From Ignavibacteriota bacterium (GTDB lineage: Bacteria > Bacteroidota > Ignavibacteria > Palsa-1295): a stretch of DNA of 64,000 nucleotides. Position numbers and translations under genes: made by a program. Positions 17,401 through 55,987 of the stretch are shown here, in pieces. Position 1 is the first letter of the stretch. Every line of letters starts with the position of its first letter. The notes under the pieces were generated by a model. It ran no database searches. It was given only the letters and a program-made list of their open reading frames with translations, and had not been told where the DNA came from. The DNA lies in contig CAWBEI010000006.1 of assembly GCA_963787835.1 (NCBI GenBank), positions 165,577-229,576 on the forward strand, read 5' to 3'.

Positions 17401-18366
17401 CACATCCAGAACAACAACATTTTGCCAGTTGGCTGGATCGACATCCAGCGCGATTCGAACCATACTCGTGCCTTCTGGGAATGGGAGTGTCGGCGTCAGC
17501 GCCCAGGTATCACCACCATCGGTTGATAGATAAACGCCATTTCCAGCAACACCGGCGTAGAGAACGGCAGTATCGCCATTCATAGAAAGTGCAAGATCTG
17601 AGACGGATTGGTTTTGAGGAAGGCCACCTGCAAGCCACGTCCATGAATTTCCGCCATCGCTTGATCGAAGCACTCCTCCCCCCGATCGGCCAGCAGCAGC
17701 ATAGACAATATTGGAATGATTTGGATTGACGATCACCCGCGTGTAAGCACCGACGCTGCTCGGACCAACATCGGACCAGGTCGCACCGCCATTGGTTGAG
17801 CGCAAAAGGCCATATCCGCCGTAAGCATCAACTGCTGGGGAAAGCTCACCGGTCCCTGCAAAAACGATATTCGTATCATTTGGATCGATCCCGAGCGCAC
17901 CCATAGAAAGTGATTGCAATTGGTCGGTCAGTGGCGTCCAGTGTGCACCTCCATTCGTTGTTTTCCATACACCACCATTGGCAGCACCGACATAAACCGA
18001 ATTCGGATTGTAAGGATTGATCGCAATCGTGTTTACACGGCCTCCAATGTTGTTCGGGCCAATGAGCGTCCATTGAGGTTGTGTGGATTGAATGGTCATG
18101 CCCTCGCGCATAGCATCCCGTTGTTGTTCTGCCTTTTGGAGCGCACCCTGCGGTATGTATCCTAACCCGAAGGTTCTCTGGTGCCAATACCACTTGAACG
18201 CATCGCCGACACCAGCATCACGGTCACCGGGTGCGAGCTGAGGATCAGAATGGTTTTCAGATTTGTATGATGAACTTTCATCCGCCTTTGTAAGCCACTG
18301 GGCGTGGACGGTTGCGGATGCAAAAAGGACGGCAAAAATAATGACGGAACGGCGCGTAGTGGTCAT
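14476..18366 (-). CDS. Large secreted Asp-box (BNR/Vps10-like) beta-propeller protein with second propeller, ASH/choice-of-anchor-D-like Ig domain and T9SS-type CTD
   Basis: 1296 aa; signal peptide; WTLIGP..GGRV; many S/TxDGGxxW repeats; HPDQH; GGTQDNG; IAFGNV; C-terminal SPNPA...GVYFLRV. Confidence 0.9.
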   Translation of the reverse strand: MTTTRRSVIIFAVLFASATVHAQWLTKADESSSYKSENHSDPQLAPGDRDAGVGDAFKWYWHQRTFGLGYIPQGALQKAEQQRDAMREGMTIQSTQPQWTLIGPNNIGGRVNTIAINPYNPNSVYVGAANGGVWKTTNGGAHWTPLTDQLQSLSMGALGIDPNDTNIVFAGTGELSPAVDAYGGYGLLRSTNGGATWSDVGPSSVGAYTRVIVNPNHSNIVYAAAGRSGGGVLRSSDGGNSWTWLAGGLPQNQSVSDLALSMNGDTAVLYAGVAGNGVYLSTDGGDTWALTPTLPFPEGTSMVRIALDVDPANWQNVVVLDVNSGTSDDLGGIESSTDGGNTWTEIDQEWQGNPLFSVGTPPQGWYDVYIKVDPTNFNHMLVGGLSVWQTLDGGQTWTDVAQSYKGGIHPDQHAAAFAPSDPNFVFLGNDGGVFSSKDGGSTITQQTFLLPITQFYGIGIDQTQGNVTYGGTQDNGTLSGSSANTDWGNILGGDGTMTQVDPKTTSIVYCETPQSFPTVYPNGSNNTGLNANIDSTVWIDPFAADATNDIIYWGCQRLAYSKNQGQSWTNCTKVFGSASAGTTISAIDAFGDGKTVLVGTGGGNVYITANNGVTFTDVSAGLPARAVTWVKFSPSSKTTFYVTLSGFGAGHIFKTTNNGSNWTDISSRLPDISVNTIVMDPQNTSVLYVGTDVGVFFSPNDGAEWMPYGTGLPNTGIDFMEVHVNNRVIRAGTHGRSIWQVPLQDDATGIVLPAQRSVWTLGDTASIQWHGFAPTVSLDLSLDGGTSWQNIATGVSDTIYPISDVNYPASENSLVRVNDGADTVISPLFSIAQQKAGNQIGTVADLRFYAYDIAYDKDDNVLWATDFDPSEDYIFKLDPDAGTILDSVKIPVSNPSNRQGFTGIKYDPVSQHLFLQEVYVAGQSWTSNLYEVDTTGQIVRSAPSPATYGTGIFLQGDTLLVVDRQQEVISRALNETWDFTVLNPLSDLQLTRNATYGPRGLTYDPKLGEYLLAYTDFQGTSLNGSYLLFLDPESGAELNSFTIAVGGELTNVRGMEYDPRGAGNTAWMTVLNTGGSAQIIKIALTDGPAAAPSATMTLQPSVIAFGNVDTGKTKTIQVEIHNTGAAPASITAINIIPAGTAFTLGNISLPVTLKPGDSLPVTVTFAPHSMDAQDASLSVTYGSDNQQAEFPISGFATVNGAGVSTSLTTNTWGIELSPNPARDFVDVTLDAASADVAEIHIFDVTGREVRNVPLGMISNGEHETQLTTTGLPNGVYFLRVMSSAGAVAAARLAIER

Positions 18367-18512
18367 GTCTTTTGAATGAAATTAATGGCGATCCATACCA
18401 ATTCTGACATGTTTCGTCGCGTAAACTCTTTGGAATTTATGAATTAAATACAAACCAAAAAGAGAGGCAAAAGTGCCCAGAGTTAATAAATGTGTAGCCA
18501 AGTCCAAACCGA

Positions 18513-20564
18513 TCAATTATGACGAATAACTCGCAGTGAACCCATTCCTTGAGCAGTTCTGAGAATGACCTGATATACCCCATCGGCATCCGGAAGTGTG
18601 AGTTCCATAGGAATATCCTTTTGCAAACCGGCAACGACCTCGCTCCGCTTCGCACCGAGCATATCGTAGATCTCTAAGGTCCCGTTGCTAATATCGGTTG
18701 AAGAAGAGACCCAAACATTTCCCGACGCCGGATTGGGCCATATCCGAAATAGCGGCGCTTGCCCTAAATGCAATAGATCTGAAAGAATTGTTATCCCACA
18801 CCCGGATAGCGTCGTGATGGTACTTGTGACGGGGGTGGGTGCGGAATACTCGCATACGGGAGCATTCAGAACCACTAAAGAATCAAACGTGGCGTGAGCG
18901 GCGGCAGCTGAATCGTTAAACACATTGAACATCGCGTAGCCCAGCAGTGAATCAGGCGCAGCTTTCAAAACCTGAAGCATGGAGCGACCGGGCCATTGCT
19001 CACCCGGAATATCCAACTTCACTCCCGAAGGGGAGAACGAGCCAAGATAATCTAGCGTAGCATCGTAATTCATGACAAAGTTGACGCTCTCCGGACTGAT
19101 GAGCCCATCCAGTGTGATCGGAACGGCAACCGTCCCACCGAGGGTATCCGTGTGTACGTCCTGCGTTAATAGCGTGAGTGTTCTGGATGTAGTGTTGACA
19201 AATCCTGTGAGTGCTACCGTATCGCTCGATCCATTACTAAGCTGGAGCACTAACTCCGCTTGTTGGCTCCCAAGCGTCAGCCCCTGCATGGTAACTAAAA
19301 CAGAATCTTTCGTAAGGCTAACAACACGATAATTCGCAGCATCCGTACCCGTGATGTTAGCCGCCGTCACAGACAAGGGCGAACATCCTCTCGTTGTGAA
19401 AACGACGGAGCGTGTCAGGCTATCGCAAGACACTGTATCACCGGCGAACAATGCTGCCGGTGAGGCAGAAAACCCAGATGGGAACTGGAGAGGAAATCCT
19501 CCGCTGTTCAGGGTTCGCCATACACTTCCATTTTCATCGAGCACAAGCACGATATTATCATTGATCGCCGCAATGCTTCGTGTGTCGTACACTTCATTTG
19601 GCCCGCCAATGTTCTTCCATGTCAGGCCAGAATCCGTGGAACGATCTACTCCTGCCCCACTACCGTTAACGGTTCCAGCATATAGCACGTTAGGGGTACT
19701 TGCCAAAGAGCCGTTGTAATAGTCAAGCGGCTGAGAACTAACAGTCTGCCACATCGAACCAGCATTGGTAGTCAAGTCAATTCGTCCTTCATTTCCACCC
19801 GATTGTGCACCTACATTTTCATTGATCAGATAGAGCCGTTGATCGTTGCAAGAATCCACAGTGAGGTTATAGGAATCGCCGTGATCATTGAGAACGGTTC
19901 GGTCGCCATTGAGAGCGTTCCAGGTTTGGCCAAGATCAGTAGAAGCATCGATCCAACCTTGAATTCCACCACCGAATCTTGATGATTCATTGATAGAAAA
20001 GACATAGATCGTTCTGTCAGAGGCTATCGCAAAGCACAGCGCACCGATCGATGCGGTGTTTGTAGTGTAAACACCATTCCACGTCGCACCTCCGTCATAG
20101 CTCGTGTAAAGAATGCTCGCGTCAGATTCTAAAGCATGAAGCACAGAGGAAGACCCATTAAAGGCTACCTGATCGTAGGTTGGCTGATTAAAACCGTTAC
20201 CACCTGGTTGAAAATTTTGCCAAGTCTGACCGGCATTTACCGTTAAGAATAGCCCATCATCAATCGTACCAACAAGTACATGCAGCGAATCATAGATGGC
20301 AATGTCCGTAATGCCTGAGTTAGCAGTAAACGAAACTGATTGCTTCCAGGTGATGCCAGAGTCATTCGACGAATAAAGCGAATACGTACCGGCCCATGCC
20401 ACTCCACCGTGAAAACGGATGGCGCCGATGTGTTGTTGCTCGGGAAGAACTAAATTCCGGGAAACCTCCCTCCACTGCGCGCGAACAGAGTGCGTAGTGA
20501 TTACAAGCGCGCATATAGCGATAGCAGATCTGCTTAAACTGAATATCCTCATGCCGTTTAGCAC
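18513..20564 (-). CDS. Secreted Asp-box beta-propeller protein, one Ig-like module, T9SS-type CTD (paralog 1)
   Basis: Signal peptide ending AQW, Asp-boxes, WPNPA...EIYDMLG...GVY. Confidence 0.88.
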   Translation of the reverse strand: MLNGMRIFSLSRSAIAICALVITTHSVRAQWREVSRNLVLPEQQHIGAIRFHGGVAWAGTYSLYSSNDSGITWKQSVSFTANSGITDIAIYDSLHVLVGTIDDGLFLTVNAGQTWQNFQPGGNGFNQPTYDQVAFNGSSSVLHALESDASILYTSYDGGATWNGVYTTNTASIGALCFAIASDRTIYVFSINESSRFGGGIQGWIDASTDLGQTWNALNGDRTVLNDHGDSYNLTVDSCNDQRLYLINENVGAQSGGNEGRIDLTTNAGSMWQTVSSQPLDYYNGSLASTPNVLYAGTVNGSGAGVDRSTDSGLTWKNIGGPNEVYDTRSIAAINDNIVLVLDENGSVWRTLNSGGFPLQFPSGFSASPAALFAGDTVSCDSLTRSVVFTTRGCSPLSVTAANITGTDAANYRVVSLTKDSVLVTMQGLTLGSQQAELVLQLSNGSSDTVALTGFVNTTSRTLTLLTQDVHTDTLGGTVAVPITLDGLISPESVNFVMNYDATLDYLGSFSPSGVKLDIPGEQWPGRSMLQVLKAAPDSLLGYAMFNVFNDSAAAAHATFDSLVVLNAPVCEYSAPTPVTSTITTLSGCGITILSDLLHLGQAPLFRIWPNPASGNVWVSSSTDISNGTLEIYDMLGAKRSEVVAGLQKDIPMELTLPDADGVYQVILRTAQGMGSLRVIRHN

Positions 20565-45552: not shown

Positions 45553-45615
45553 TCGCATTCTGCCAAAATCCCGAAACGATTCGGCTTCGCCGGGAAGCTG
45601 GATGTGCTGAATATC
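45553..45615 (-). repeat. Displaced duplicate of the 3' end of the NTF2-like gene
   Basis: Near-identical direct repeat of 46342-46404. Confidence 0.9.
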
Positions 45616-45627
45616 AACGATTAGTAA

Positions 45628-45915
45628 TTACTGTTGCAGCACCTGCAACGATCTTTTCGGCAGCGATTCCACGAGCGTCAGGAGCGCGGCGGCAGGGCCG
45701 TGCGGGCGGCGGCGACCCTGCTCCCAGTTCCGTACCGTTGCGACGGGCACGCGTATCATCAGCGCGAATTCATCCTGCGACTTCCCAAGCTTTCGCCGAA
45801 TTTCCTTCACGTGCATGGAATAATCGAATACTCGCGAGGGTTTCTGCGACCCTTTGAGAATTCGTCCGCCCTCTTTCACGCTCTCCAATAGTTCCTCGAA
45901 ATCCTGTTTCTTCAT
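45628..45915 (-). CDS. XRE HTH antitoxin (HigA/NadS-like)
   Basis: FEELLESVKE...SQDEFA...TVRNWEQGRRRP.GPA.ALL. Confidence 0.9.
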   Translation of the reverse strand: MKKQDFEELLESVKEGGRILKGSQKPSRVFDYSMHVKEIRRKLGKSQDEFALMIRVPVATVRNWEQGRRRPHGPAAALLTLVESLPKRSLQVLQQ

Positions 45916-46229
45916 GTGTATTCCTCGTCCACGATTTTTTTAAGTGCCTTTTTTTGTTGTTGCGTCAGTTGGTCTGTCGTCCCCTTGGGAAACACGTATA
46001 GCATCAAGATCTGCTCTCGGTGCGCTGCCCAAAAGTAAAGGATTCGTGCGCCTCCTCGTTTACCGTGTCCCTTAGCTGCAATTCGTACTTTTCGGAGACC
46101 GCCCGTTCCCGGTTCTTTCGGCCCGAGTGCCGGGTTGGCCACCAATTCGTTTTGAATGTTGCGATATTCGTCATCCGAAACAAGGGATGTTATCTGCCGC
46201 GTGAACACCGATGTTTCAACAATGACCAT
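45912..46229 (-). CDS. RelE/HigB-family toxin
   Basis: VETSVF, GTGGLRKVR, GKRGGARILY. Confidence 0.92.
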   Translation of the reverse strand: MVIVETSVFTRQITSLVSDDEYRNIQNELVANPALGPKEPGTGGLRKVRIAAKGHGKRGGARILYFWAAHREQILMLYVFPKGTTDQLTQQQKKALKKIVDEEYT

Positions 46230-46321
46230 ACTGCGCCAATGGCGTATAACTACTCCGAGCGATCAGCCGTTCCTTTCTGGATCCACAACGTTGCAATGAA
46301 CAGAAAATTATTCCTCACCGA

Positions 46322-46722
46322 TCATACCACAACCTCTGCCTTCGCACTCTGCCAAAACTCCCGAAACGATTCGGCTTCGCCGGAAGCTGGATGTGCTGAA
46401 TATCGCAGATCACATTATCCTTAAACCCGATCACCTCGTCGAAATGGTTCTCGTGCCAGCGGTCGCCAATACGCGTGGCATCGGTGTAGTGTATCTTGAA
46501 TACGCCGTCCTCCATACACTCCACGTGGGAGGAATATCTCACTTCATTGAACATTTTCTTGCCGAACAAATGGTTCTGCCGGTAAATATTGACAATGTTC
46601 TCGCGTCCGACATAATTTCCTTCCCAATAGTGGTACTCGCAGTCCTCCGCCATGAGCGGCAGGAGGTCATCGTATTTCGTTTGGTCAAGCAGTAATGCGA
46701 AGTTCTGTGCAATTTGAAGCAT
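46322..46722 (-). CDS. NTF2/SnoaL-like protein (1-nt frameshift near 46382)
   Basis: YDDLLPLMAEDCEY...YVGRENI. The duplicate copy has the extra G that restores LPGEAESFREFW...VV*. Confidence 0.75.
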
Positions 46723-46748: not shown

Positions 46749-47003
46749 TTACCGGTATGCCTCGCTCCGTTTTAGCACTGCGGCAACCTTAACTTCCTTT
46801 GTGGAATCGAAGATGAAGTAGAGAATCCTGTAATCTCCAACACGAATTCGCCATTTGTTCACATCGCCGTGAAGCTTTTTACATCCGGAAGGTCGGGGGT
46901 TGTCGGCGAGCGCACCCATCTTCTTGATCAATCGCTCAACGAGCGTTGCCGGAAGCTTCTCCATCTCCCTTCGCGCCTCGGACGACACATCCACGCGATA
47001 CAT
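46749..47003 (-). CDS. RelE/ParE-family toxin
   Basis: LADNPRPSGCKKL, WRIRVGDYRILY, RSEAYR. Confidence 0.93.
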   Translation of the reverse strand: MYRVDVSSEARREMEKLPATLVERLIKKMGALADNPRPSGCKKLHGDVNKWRIRVGDYRILYFIFDSTKEVKVAAVLKRSEAYR

Positions 47004-54044: not shown

Positions 54045-54689
54045 CTATTCCCGCACCACATTCTTCGTCATCACCGAATTTGCCGAAGAGAATCTGATAT
54101 AATACGTACCCGGAGCGAGCTTGGAGAGATCGAGTGTGAAATTGGGAGCCGGAGGAATCTTTTGCTCCAGAACCGTCTCGCCGAGCGAGTTAAAGGCGGA
54201 GACCGTTATATTATCCAAAGGCAATCCCTGAACCGAGAGCATTCCGTCGGTAGGATTCGGTGTAACCGTAAAGGGAACTGATTTTAGATCACTCTTTACT
54301 CCTGACGTGGAATGAGCGGGATTCGGCGGAGCATTGGTATAATCGAAATTCGTAACATTGACTACGCTATCACCTGGCATTGCATAACACCGAGCGCCGG
54401 GCTTTAAATAAATCAGGTTGCGATCGCAGGCACTCACTATCGTACACCCTGGTTCGGCGAAGACTGTAGTTCCGCCAAAAACATCGAAATCGAAGCCTGG
54501 ATTAACCCAGAATATTTGACCTCCGTATTGCAAACTGTTTTGCCCATCCGGTGTGATCACGGTTGCATTCTTCGGAATTGAAGGCATGGAATCCACTACC
54601 GATTGCGCGTCTGCATTACCGGCGATCAAGAAAACGATGAAGGTCAAAAAGATCCGAAATGCACAATGACGGTTTTTCATAAGTTCCAT
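54045..54689 (-). CDS. Small secreted protein with T9SS-type CTD
   Basis: Signal peptide; TPNPT...NSLGE...LDLSKLAPGTYYIR. Confidence 0.82.
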   Translation of the reverse strand: MELMKNRHCAFRIFLTFIVFLIAGNADAQSVVDSMPSIPKNATVITPDGQNSLQYGGQIFWVNPGFDFDVFGGTTVFAEPGCTIVSACDRNLIYLKPGARCYAMPGDSVVNVTNFDYTNAPPNPAHSTSGVKSDLKSVPFTVTPNPTDGMLSVQGLPLDNITVSAFNSLGETVLEQKIPPAPNFTLDLSKLAPGTYYIRFSSANSVMTKNVVRE

Positions 54690-54816
54690 TCTAGATGATA
54701 ATGAATGACAATCAAACGAGGAAACCGGTAATTGGTTGCATCAATTTCAGGGCATTAATTTTGCCCCGGATTTTCGCCTATTCCGCCTTACAAACCCCCA
54801 ATGTTACTCTTTCGTG

Positions 54817-54927
54817 TTAAGCCGCCACTTTCGCCCCGTCCCGCGCCTCGATCCAATGGCGGATGTACTCCACAATAGCGGACATCGGCGCGCCGGGAGT
54901 GAAAAGCTGGCCCACGCCGATCTTTTT
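54817..54927 (-). repeat. Displaced duplicate of the last 37 codons of the B12-binding-domain gene
   Basis: 111-bp direct repeat of 55420-55530; 8 mismatches by manual count. Confidence 0.93.
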
Positions 54928-54937
54928 TTCGCAAAGG

Positions 54938-55147
54938 TTAGGCATAAACCAGTCGTCCCTTTGGCTGTGGAATTTCGCGGCCCAATTCTTTCGCGTAATC
55001 TATCCACTCTCGCATCACTGTTTCGACGTTCAGTAGTGTCTCAGAGTACGTTTTGCCATCAGCCATGCAGCCCGGAAGCTCTGGTACTTCCGCAATAAAG
55101 CGGTCGTCCTGCTCGCTCCAGTAAATAATTATTTCGTATCGATTCAT
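54938..55147 (-). CDS. hicB: HicB-family antitoxin
   Basis: YEIIIYWSEQD..FIAEVPELPGCMADG.T..E. Confidence 0.93.
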   Translation of the reverse strand: MNRYEIIIYWSEQDDRFIAEVPELPGCMADGKTYSETLLNVETVMREWIDYAKELGREIPQPKGRLVYA

Positions 55148-55395
55148 AACGTATCCGATAATTGATATTGCAAAATAATTTTGCGAACCTGCCGAACCTG
55201 ATAGGCTTTCGTCATCCCATTCTCCGGCTGCAAGTCGATGATCTCACGAATTCCTTCCCTTGAATAGAGGTGATGACTTCCACGAATTCGTTCTGAAAAT
55301 CCCATCGATATTAGCATCCCTGTCAGTTCATTGAACCGGATATTGTAATCGGAAGTGCCACGAAGTAAAATATCGAGAGTTTTGCGGGGATTCAT
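55144..55395 (-). CDS. hicA: HicA-family toxin
   Basis: NIRF.EL..L..GF.ERIRGSHH...QP....KAYQVRQV. Confidence 0.93.
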   Translation of the reverse strand: MNPRKTLDILLRGTSDYNIRFNELTGMLISMGFSERIRGSHHLYSREGIREIIDLQPENGMTKAYQVRQVRKIILQYQLSDTL

Positions 55396-55419
55396 TTAGA
55401 CTGAGAAAATTAGTCTGGC

Positions 55420-55836
55420 TCACACCGCCACGTTCGCCCCATCTCGCGCCTCGATCCAATGGCGGATGTACTCCACAATCGCGGACATCGGCGCACCGGG
55501 AGTGAAAAGCTGGCCCACGCCGATCTTTTTCAGTTCCTCGATGTCTTCGTTGGACATAATGCCGCCGCCGGTGAGGAGCACATCGTCCAGGCCGCGCTCG
55601 CGCAGCAATTTCAGGACGCGCGGGAAGATCGTCATGTGCGCGCCGGAGAGCATGGAAATGCCAACGACATCCACGTCCTCCTGCAACGCGGCTTCCGCGA
55701 TCATTTCGGGCGTTTGGCGCAGACCGGTGTAGATCACTTCCATTCCCGCATCGCGCAGAGCTGCAGCAATAACTTTCGCGCCACGATCGTGGCCATCCAA
55801 TCCGGCTTTGGCAATAAGGACTCGTATTTTTCTCAA
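55420..55836 (-). CDS. Cobalamin-binding domain protein (methylmalonyl-CoA mutase small subunit type)
   Basis: [11 protein letters not shown] (DxHxxG), GLRQTPE, SMLSGAH, GGGI, FTPG. Confidence 0.93.
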
Positions 55837-55845
55837 GTTTGGGAA

Positions 55846-55984
55846 AGTGCTAAGTACTGGTAAGTGCTGAGTGCTAAGTTATGAACTGCCTTGTAAACAC
55901 CAAATGGGACAAAATACTTCACAACCTTGTTTCAGCCGCACTCGACTAACTACTTTAGCACTCAGCACTTTAGCACTTAGCACT
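55846..55984. repeat. Inverted pair of AGTGCT(A/G) heptamer arrays
   Basis: aagtgctaagtactggtaagtgctgagtgctaagt and actttagcactcagcactttagcacttagcact. Confidence 0.8.
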
Positions 55985-55987
55985 TCT

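Follow-up and report, generated by a model that had tools for sequence, protein, structure and literature searches.

A 603-bp hicAB unit between two ends of a B12-binding protein gene in an Ignavibacteriota bacterium, and similarly framed cassettes at other gene ends

A hicAB toxin–antitoxin (TA) pair lying between two copies of one gene end was found in a stretch of 64,000 nucleotides (hereafter, the window) of contig CAWBEI010000006.1 from an Ignavibacteriota bacterium. The duplicated end comprises the last 111 nt of a gene for a B12-binding protein. One copy completes the working gene, and the other lies behind the hicAB pair as an orphan. In our reading, to which we assign a probability of about 0.5, this 603-bp unit belongs to a family of recombinase-less cassettes; it likely arose when a "gene end plus cassette" segment of a closely related strain was added by homologous insertion-duplication, and it is predicted to be held by TA addiction. 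In the following, G000 denotes the source genome of the window, and G001–G014 denote 14 relatives of the same genus (15 genomes together with G000). The features of the locus are as follows.

55420..55836, minus strand: host gene for a stand-alone B12-binding domain protein (methylmalonyl-CoA mutase C-terminal domain) of 138 aa, assigned from its open reading frame (ORF), Pfam PF02310 (E 3.7e-25) and TIGR00640 (E 1e-51)
55420..55530, minus strand: working copy, the last 111 nt of the gene including its stop TGA, from the repeat search and alignment
55396..55419, minus strand: 24-nt spacer from the host stop to the hicA start, with 19/24 positions common to G002
55144..55395, minus strand: hicA-like toxin gene of 83 aa with a conserved G-S-H-H stretch, from a sub-threshold Pfam match, the alignment and a fold match
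54938..55147, minus strand: hicB-like antitoxin gene of 69 aa with the N-terminal UPF0150/HicB domain only, from Pfam and PDB 2DSY
54928..54937, minus strand: 10-nt linker from the hicB stop to the orphan end, like the G002 linker and partly like the G005 linker
54817..54927, minus strand: orphan copy of the last 111 nt of the gene, with the tail EARDGAKVAA and its own stop TAA, from the repeat search and alignment

The repeat search returned a single strong family, a 106-nt direct repeat at 54822–54927 and 55425–55530 that is 95% identical and spaced by 603 nt start to start. A match of this length and identity exceeds chance by far. When extended to the stop codons, the copies span 54817–54927 and 55420–55530, 111 nt each, and differ by 8 mismatches (at 55421, 55423, 55424, 55432, 55441, 55444, 55480 and 55495 in the coordinates of the working copy). 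The search and the alignment thus confirmed the 111-bp repeats with eight mismatches around hicAB that had been reported in a preliminary description of this DNA. Its count of five silent differences holds for four synonymous changes and, in a wider sense, for one exchange of stop codons (TGA/TAA); the remaining three change residues (N/K, and V/A via two bases). Two identical runs of 35 nt are shared by the copies (55445–55479 and 55496–55530). The length of the unit is the sum 111 + 24 + 458 + 10 = 603, and the insert between the 111-nt repeats measures 492 bp. The GC content of the cassette is 45% vs. 59% for the host gene.

The divergence between working and orphan ends was examined by codon position. 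For this, 15 pairs of working and orphan gene ends were used; the pairs of G004 and of the metagenomes were left out, as their frame was unsure. The 83 differences in these pairs were distributed as 15/12/56 over the three codon positions, i.e., 67% (56/83) at third positions, and the ten ungapped pairs gave a split of 10/8/48 (73% third). For comparison, 81% of the differences between true orthologues of the B12 gene are at third positions. The share expected if an orphan decays freely was estimated at ~43–46%, a value that GC-biased mutation would, by our estimate, raise only slightly, and the observed excess has P = 6e-5 at p = 0.46. Such an excess indicates that most of the divergence arose while both copies were working gene ends, i.e., in different genomes. 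The orphan ends would then be former working alleles, and the earlier proposal that a silent bias marks both ends as once coding is upheld by the whole set of 15 pairs.

Extra copies of the B12-gene end were present in 4 of the 15 genomes of the genus, in the following arrangements.

G000: hicAB at the B12-gene end
G002: hicAB followed by a first orphan, and a BrnT cassette followed by a second orphan, which is shorter (last ~45 nt)
G005: a 105-nt orphan, separated from the working end by an unnamed gene and a DUF2283 gene
G013: on a small contig, an orphan with its start at -150

The frame and the stop codon are retained in all four orphan copies at this site (4/4). The layout of G000 recurs at the G002 locus, which is 94% identical and has substitutions of its own in either copy. 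The working copy of G000 ends in ANVAV and its orphan in AKVAA; in G002, the working copy ends in AKVAA and the orphans in ANVAA and ANVTA. The tail alleles (K/N, A/V/T) are reshuffled between working and orphan copies in these two genomes. Between G000 and G002, third positions differ in 13 of the 153 hicAB codons vs. 21 of the 139 codons of the host gene, and at these positions the pair is about half as diverged as the gene behind which it lies.

Only one copy of the gene end within ±1.5 kb was seen in 8 of the 14 relatives (G001, G003, G006, G008, G009, G011, G012 and G014). For G004, G007 and G010, the single match comes from the genome-wide search only, with no ±1.5 kb reading. The empty sites anticipated in the preliminary description exist in the sense that these eight relatives have a single end, but the sites mostly are not bare and carry other accessory genes directly after the stop. 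In G014, a BrnT–CopG pair begins 3 nt past the stop and is followed by a weak 17-nt remnant (14/17) like the last orphan of G002. The B12-gene stop of G006 is followed by a Bro-N gene (Pfam), and that of G001 by an unscanned ORF; no convincing ORF was seen there in G009. The stretch behind the B12-gene stop is thus a hot spot, with and without duplicated ends. Six relatives preserve the gene order thiolase / B12 gene / GSDH-like gene.

The preliminary description had treated the hicAB unit as a lone element. Instead, the unit exemplifies a habit of the whole lineage, which includes stacks at groEL. Additional groEL ends lie downstream of this gene in 9 of the 14 genomes in which it was found, and up to three cassettes occur in a row, as in G009 (L146, L148; G009:C30:33760-37190) and G013 (L013 400-2440). 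Besides BrnT–CopG and DUF2283 pairs, the stacks contain hicAB and unnamed genes, and the final 70 nt of groEL recur behind each cassette. The relatives of hicAB itself occupy several kinds of sites. Among the seven genome loci, those of G006 and G013 are framed on both sides by the terminal 70 nt of groEL, the one of G014 lies behind groEL with a 16-nt remnant downstream only, and the one of G004 lies at a third site, between 119-nt repeats of another sequence; no flanking repeat was found at the G009 locus. In the metagenome set, 80 loci with close HicB relatives were collected, of which 58 had at least 300 nt on both sides and 22 were dropped for short flanks. Flanking repeats were present at 10 of these 58 loci. 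Nine of the ten were looked at; their repeats included the groEL end, a gene end of 97 nt, and the ends of a 559-aa gene (last 110 nt) and of a hemB-like gene (last 62 nt). The hicAB copies at different sites are 74–83% identical, and their homology stops at the ORFs, which leaves the cassette limits not mappable.

A scan of the genome for TA pairs with duplicated gene ends, which had been proposed earlier, yielded many. In the comparison of G000 with itself, 33 direct-repeat pairs (~40–150 nt, 0.3–1.7 kb apart) were picked by eye, and 18 of them as well as two in the window were inspected. In 8 of the inspected pairs, one copy is the end of a coding sequence, and in seven of these it ends within 0–10 nt of the stop. 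The repeats comprise the last 53–111 nt of the host genes, the cassettes are mostly TA-like, and 7/8 are co-oriented with the host gene. The eight host ends and their cargo are as follows.

DEAD helicase end: ParE and antitoxin
prs end: Gp49/HigB-like and antidote-like genes
purB end: ParE and a small ORF
holA end: a small ORF and DUF2283
Rieske protein end: DUF2158
msrB end: a 239-aa ORF on the opposite strand
B12 gene end: hicAB
End of a 135-aa ORF in the window: RelE and a helix–turn–helix (HTH) gene, where the repeat ends 27 nt before the stop

The framed units are 0.35–1.3 kb long. The DEAD cassette with its orphan is common to G002 and G014, the gene stands alone in 10 of the 14 relatives, and the site in G009 holds a longer stack with a 365-nt copy. 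The prs cassette of G000 was found in no relative, and G007 has the last 48 nt of prs again ~0.6 kb downstream. Other TA pairs of G000 (ParE, PIN–ribbon-helix-helix, PemK, BrnT–CopG) lie between non-coding repeats, some of which may be of the repetitive extragenic palindromic (REP) type and were therefore left out of the count of gene-end frames. At an E-value below 1e-8, flanking repeats were present at 3/9 ParE, 3/17 PIN and 4/11 DUF2283 loci in G000 (10/37), with six weaker repeats at such loci not counted.

The cargo of the 603-bp unit is identified as a HicAB pair with predicted toxin activity. The HicA protein matches the Pfam profile HicA_toxin (PF07927) with 19.4 bits (E 1.2e-3), below the 27-bit cut-off, and no sequence match was obtained in NCBIfam or among the PDB sequences. 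In the alignment of 20 sequences, H41 is invariant, and G39 and H42 are conserved at 90% or more (H42 nearly invariant). The histidine of the G-x-H-H stretch has a catalytic role in HicA proteins. The AlphaFold2 model built from this alignment has a mean predicted local distance difference test (pLDDT) score of 92.9 and the element order H-H-E-E-E-H. Its predicted fold is alpha-beta-beta-beta-alpha, similar to a double-stranded RNA-binding domain, as in the solved HicA proteins. In the Foldseek search against the PDB, ranks 1–6 were all HicA (6g26_E, 6g26_F, 5yrz_B, 1whz, 4c26 and 4p78_C), with probabilities of 0.84–1.00, target TM-scores of 0.57–0.72 and E-values of only 0.03–0.19. The assignment of HicA is thus carried by the modelled fold where the sequence profiles stay sub-threshold.

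The HicB protein matches UPF0150 (PF21748) with 34.9 bits (cut-off 27.3, E 1.5e-8) and HicB_lk_antitox (PF15919) with 29.3 bits (cut-off 27, E 1e-6), the match covering positions 1–59 of the 123 profile positions. It also matches PDB 2DSY (TTHA0281) with an E-value of 2.5e-5. The C-terminal DNA-binding domain, judged from the length of 69 aa and the coverage of the Pfam profile, is absent. Such a domain is common in HicB proteins but optional, and it is missing in the short UPF0150 type. The hicA and hicB genes overlap by 4 nt with the toxin gene first, and this order is the same in all seven genome loci (7/7). Since only 24 nt separate the host stop from hicA, no terminator-like site was found in this spacer, and HicB has no DNA-binding domain, hicAB is probably read through from the host gene.

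No mobility gene was found in or beside the cassette by ORFs and Pfam, a search that did not extend to serine recombinases and transposases. The three tyrosine recombinases of G000 (PF00589 matches) are all on other contigs, none of them near groEL, in agreement with the earlier statement that the cassette lacks an integrase; one of the three belongs to a 22.6-kb island of its own. Three candidate explanations of the repeats were rejected. Retro-copying of the cassettes by a reverse transcriptase was dropped, as the genome gave 0 RVT_1 matches. Four DNA folds of 136-nt repeat regions gave z values of -0.58 to +0.75 relative to shuffled sequences; the repeats fold no better than shuffled sequence and hence are not attC-like. 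An origin of the repeat boundaries in restriction sites was dropped as well, since GATC lies near some of them, not consistently. Translation of the orphan was also considered. In G000, a 42-aa frame starts at an ATG that overlaps the hicB stop. In G002, the orphan is in the hicB frame after its stop, with TTG only; the arrangement is not conserved.

We propose that the unit could have been added in the following way. In the donor, a TA pair would lie directly behind the stop of a gene, a state seen in G014 with its BrnT–CopG pair. A segment that starts some tens of bases within the gene and ends with the pair would enter a related cell, whether in circular form, as a tandem unit or as an "ends-in" fragment, and would recombine with the resident gene end by RecA-type homology. 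The outcome would be a hybrid working end followed by the trailer and cassette of the donor, with the resident end displaced downstream as an orphan. Homology past the stop would soon be lost in the non-coding DNA, which would make the stop look like the end of the repeats. A crossover of one copy with the other would excise the cassette cleanly, and the cells losing hicAB would be poisoned by the longer-lived HicA RNase. Addiction would likewise kill incoming DNA that replaces the resident pair. As replacement is thus forbidden, only additive events would survive, and the cassettes would pile up beside the gene. A BrnT cassette with a short orphan is present in G002 and, decayed, in G014, and hicAB lies between this cassette and the gene in G002 only. 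This order of the stack fits additions next to the gene, with the BrnT cassette as the older one.

More generally, TA pairs and other small selfish genes could have a recombinase-free life cycle of their own, in which "gene end + cassette" units travel from strain to related strain, dock by homology on the ends of essential genes and, with replacement forbidden by addiction, stack in an integron-like manner. We put forward this general, unnamed mobility route only tentatively, as a possibility for which we would not claim even odds.

Several observations weigh against homologous insertion-duplication. The model contains no account of how the end of a new gene first acquires a cassette. Each locus contributes little to the codon-position sample, and some pairs have one working copy in common and are non-independent. 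ComEC and DprA are present in G000, but they also match in 10–11 of 14 control genomes, so these competence genes say little. Of 6 soil-metagenome runs with public contigs, 4 were compared with the locus; their contigs here are short, and the stretch 54642–54869, which had no cover, was not interpreted. Neither an excised allele nor a contig spanning both copies was present among the contigs of these four runs. In run X1, a 301-nt contig joins position 55495 to 54893 (55393–55495 followed by 54893–55090), like the junction of a circle or tandem of the 603-bp unit. However, 35 identical bases fit both sides of the join, which is longer than the words of such assemblies (presumably 31 letters); the join may be a k-mer chimera and is no evidence of a circle. 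The ~0.6-kb circle or excised allele suggested earlier is therefore not shown, as the sole circle-like contig may be a de Bruijn artefact.

A further difficulty is that both copies of the gene end carry the allele of their own genome. Both G000 copies have the YIRHW codons and both G002 copies the YIRGW codons, and in G005, too, working and orphan copies share genome-specific alleles. This requires that the donor was very close kin, that the duplication was made from the target, or that gene conversion took place. The origin from a related strain proposed earlier stands only in this narrowed form, with a close donor or with a duplication of the target itself. The latter possibility corresponds to a strict insertion with long target duplication, in which the cassette alone arrives and break repair or replication copies ~50–150 nt of the target on both sides, identical at birth. 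Such a process would explain the genome-specific alleles shared by working and orphan copies, as well as the occurrence of one cassette family at several genes, each time framed by the local gene end. It would also account for the repeat identities of the framed cassettes, which reach 98–100%, and it is on record for restriction-modification units, which have repeats of ~100 bp and lack mobility genes. Meanwhile, 67–73% of the differences fall on third positions vs. the ~45% expected, and the orphans at the B12 site keep their frame and stop in 4/4 copies. Moreover, the trailer past the working groEL copy differs from the trailer past the orphans, as if the trailer of the donor came along. We therefore consider strict target duplication a serious but unlikely explanation.

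The uniformity of the groEL frame also argues against independent additions. All groEL orphans, in 9 genomes, start at one base (-70). Unrelated non-hicAB cassettes at groEL share 14–17 nt before the orphan, and their last ORFs differ, yet end on the frame's own TGA. A frame shared in this way does not seem explicable by independent accidents and points to an exchange of cassettes in a standing frame or to a site-directed step. This could be achieved by a recombinase acting in trans (Xer-type or other) that inserts and swaps cassettes at fixed points of a standing frame, integron-like, with the gene end as a docking site. At the B12 gene, two unrelated cassettes begin their repeats at -111 and -109 and have part of the linker in common, and the arrays are co-oriented, TA-rich and placed behind a strongly expressed gene, both of which would suit such an enzyme. 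In spite of this, three tyrosine recombinases would have to serve at least 8 different framed sequences in one genome (serine recombinases and transposases not searched). The boundaries of the repeats vary at the B12 gene (-150 and ~-45), at the DEAD gene (53 and 365 nt) and at prs (70 and 48 nt), and the repeat is not attC-like (z between -0.6 and +0.8). A recombinase in trans thus appears distinctly improbable.

The unit could also be a relic of a larger integrase-bearing phage or island at the 3' end of the gene, from which all but the TA pair beside one attachment site was deleted. A replacement end with its own stop and a downstream orphan is indeed the layout of elements integrating into the ends of coding sequences, and G000 holds one classical island with an integrase and 198-nt repeats. 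This island (G000:C4:17605-40371) encodes a 423-aa tyrosine integrase (18224–19495), and its direct repeats (83%) lie 22.6 kb apart. However, no large integrase element was seen at the B12-gene end or at groEL in the loci read, the deletions would have had to halt repeatedly within 10 nt of hicB and of many other cassettes, and stacks of three 0.6-kb units are unlike decay products. We regard such a relic as very improbable. An assembly artefact, i.e., a mis-join of two strain variants of the gene end, is suggested by the metagenome-type assembly and by the fact that no public contig examined spans both copies, but it can practically be dismissed, since G002 has the same order with its own substitutions, which makes mis-assembly very unlikely, since separate contigs cover both joints without mismatch (X3, 55365–55634, from hicA through the working copy into the gene body; X1, the joint of orphan and hicB), and since the layout recurs at many loci.

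Homologous insertion-duplication can be compared with several known systems. Chromosomal TA pairs are plainly exchanged between genomes, most of them without a mobile element around, and their mode of movement is an open point. Direct repeats around TA loci are said to be mentioned by Pandey and Gerdes (2005), and long target duplication of restriction-modification units was reportedly described by Nobusato et al. (2000). Upon integration at icd, e14 and phage 21 exchange the 3' end of this protein gene for their own. As in these elements, the locus has an alternative gene end with its own stop, mostly silent differences and an orphaned resident end. Unlike them (they encode an integrase and measure tens of kb), it has no integrase, units of 0.35–1.3 kb and many targets per genome. 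Modules without a recombinase also accrete at the 3' end of fda as cis-mobilisable elements in streptococci and occur as pdif modules in Acinetobacter plasmids; there, a known recombinase acts in trans on short sites (the integrase of an integrative and conjugative element, or XerC/D). The cassettes described here resemble them in being recombinase-less, repeat-bounded, often TA pairs and stacked in tandem, but no such short site or enzyme was identified here. With integron cassettes and sedentary chromosomal integrons, they have in common short, co-oriented, mostly promoter-less and TA-rich arrays with similar repeats of ~70–130 nt. In contrast to integrons, the profile PF00589, used without the IntI-specific domain, gave no match on this contig or close to groEL, the repeat derives from the end of the host gene itself, and there is no attC hairpin. 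In the part drawn on here, PMC12614218 concerns integrase-dependent integron events only.

Among known cases, the closest is that of restriction-modification units, for which insertion with long target duplication has been described (Furuta, Abe & Kobayashi 2010, PMC2853133; Mruk & Kobayashi 2014, PMC3874152). In the parts of these papers used here, its mechanism is given as unknown and is tentatively tied to DNA breakage by the restriction enzyme. Furuta et al. (PMC2853133) looked, in the part used, for an insert of <20 kb, direct repeats of >30 bp and a repeat that is single in genomes lacking the insert. At the B12 site, we found an insert of 492 bp, repeats of 111 nt, a single copy in 8 relatives and no mobility gene (serine recombinases and transposases not searched). 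Both kinds of units, as far as those parts of the papers show, are small and addictive, have no mobility gene, and have direct repeats of tens to hundreds of bases on either side, which are single in genomes lacking the unit; in restriction-modification units, there is sometimes an overlap of these repeats with the 3' end of a gene. The cargo here is, however, a type II TA pair (hicAB) with predicted RNase toxins, to which the idea of DNA breaks by restriction enzymes does not apply. Here, moreover, the stop codon of a co-oriented host gene is regularly also the end of the repeat, the divergence of the copies is coding-like, and the units are stacked into arrays. No report of long target duplication or of duplicated gene-end frames for type II TA cassettes was found in the literature, subscription papers not being covered.

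What sets the present case apart is the frequency of the frames, their stacks and their coding-like divergence. The lineage offers many dated examples of one pattern, in which the frame is the host gene's own end and the gene is kept whole, at essential genes, in stacks and without an integrase. If homologous recombination together with addiction is the true cause, the clustering of TA pairs at a few hot spots behind core genes would be explained, and long target duplication would also apply to addictive genes of a second class, with toxins that leave DNA uncut. A marked repeat–cassette–repeat unit would then be a concrete system for studying the mechanism.

The window contains a second framed cassette, the one at the 135-aa ORF.

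45553..46404, minus strand: second framed cassette, with a RelE-like gene (45912–46229) and an HTH antitoxin-like gene (45628–45915)

Its repeats of 62–63 nt (45553–45615 and 46342–46404) are 98% identical with two 1-nt gaps, and the upper one lies 27–90 nt before the stop of the 135-aa ORF. A ParE gene is located just upstream of this cassette, at ~46755–46991.

Two further loci of G000 were recorded in passing. At L032 (G000:C5:66500-67700), a 91-aa GIY-YIG gene lies between two tRNA-Met genes (ARAGORN) with an identical 3' part of 56 nt. At L033 (G000:C2:1483140-1483848), a DUF559 endonuclease-like gene lies between two ~100-nt GC-rich hairpin repeats, which have the look of REP-type repeats rather than of gene ends.

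The neighbours of the hicAB cassette are thiolase, glycosyltransferase and type IX secretion system (T9SS) cargo genes (Pfam). At 54045–54816, the 116 nt right after the orphan stop and the 214-aa T9SS-cargo gene behind them have a paralogous copy on contig C4 that is 83–86% identical. The paralogy starts exactly one base past the orphan stop, and G002 is without the T9SS-cargo gene at this site; the stretch may be a further inserted module. On the other side, where the B12 gene is separated from the thiolase gene (55845–55985), runs of a short AGTGCTAAGT-like unit form inverted repeats of 14–20 nt.

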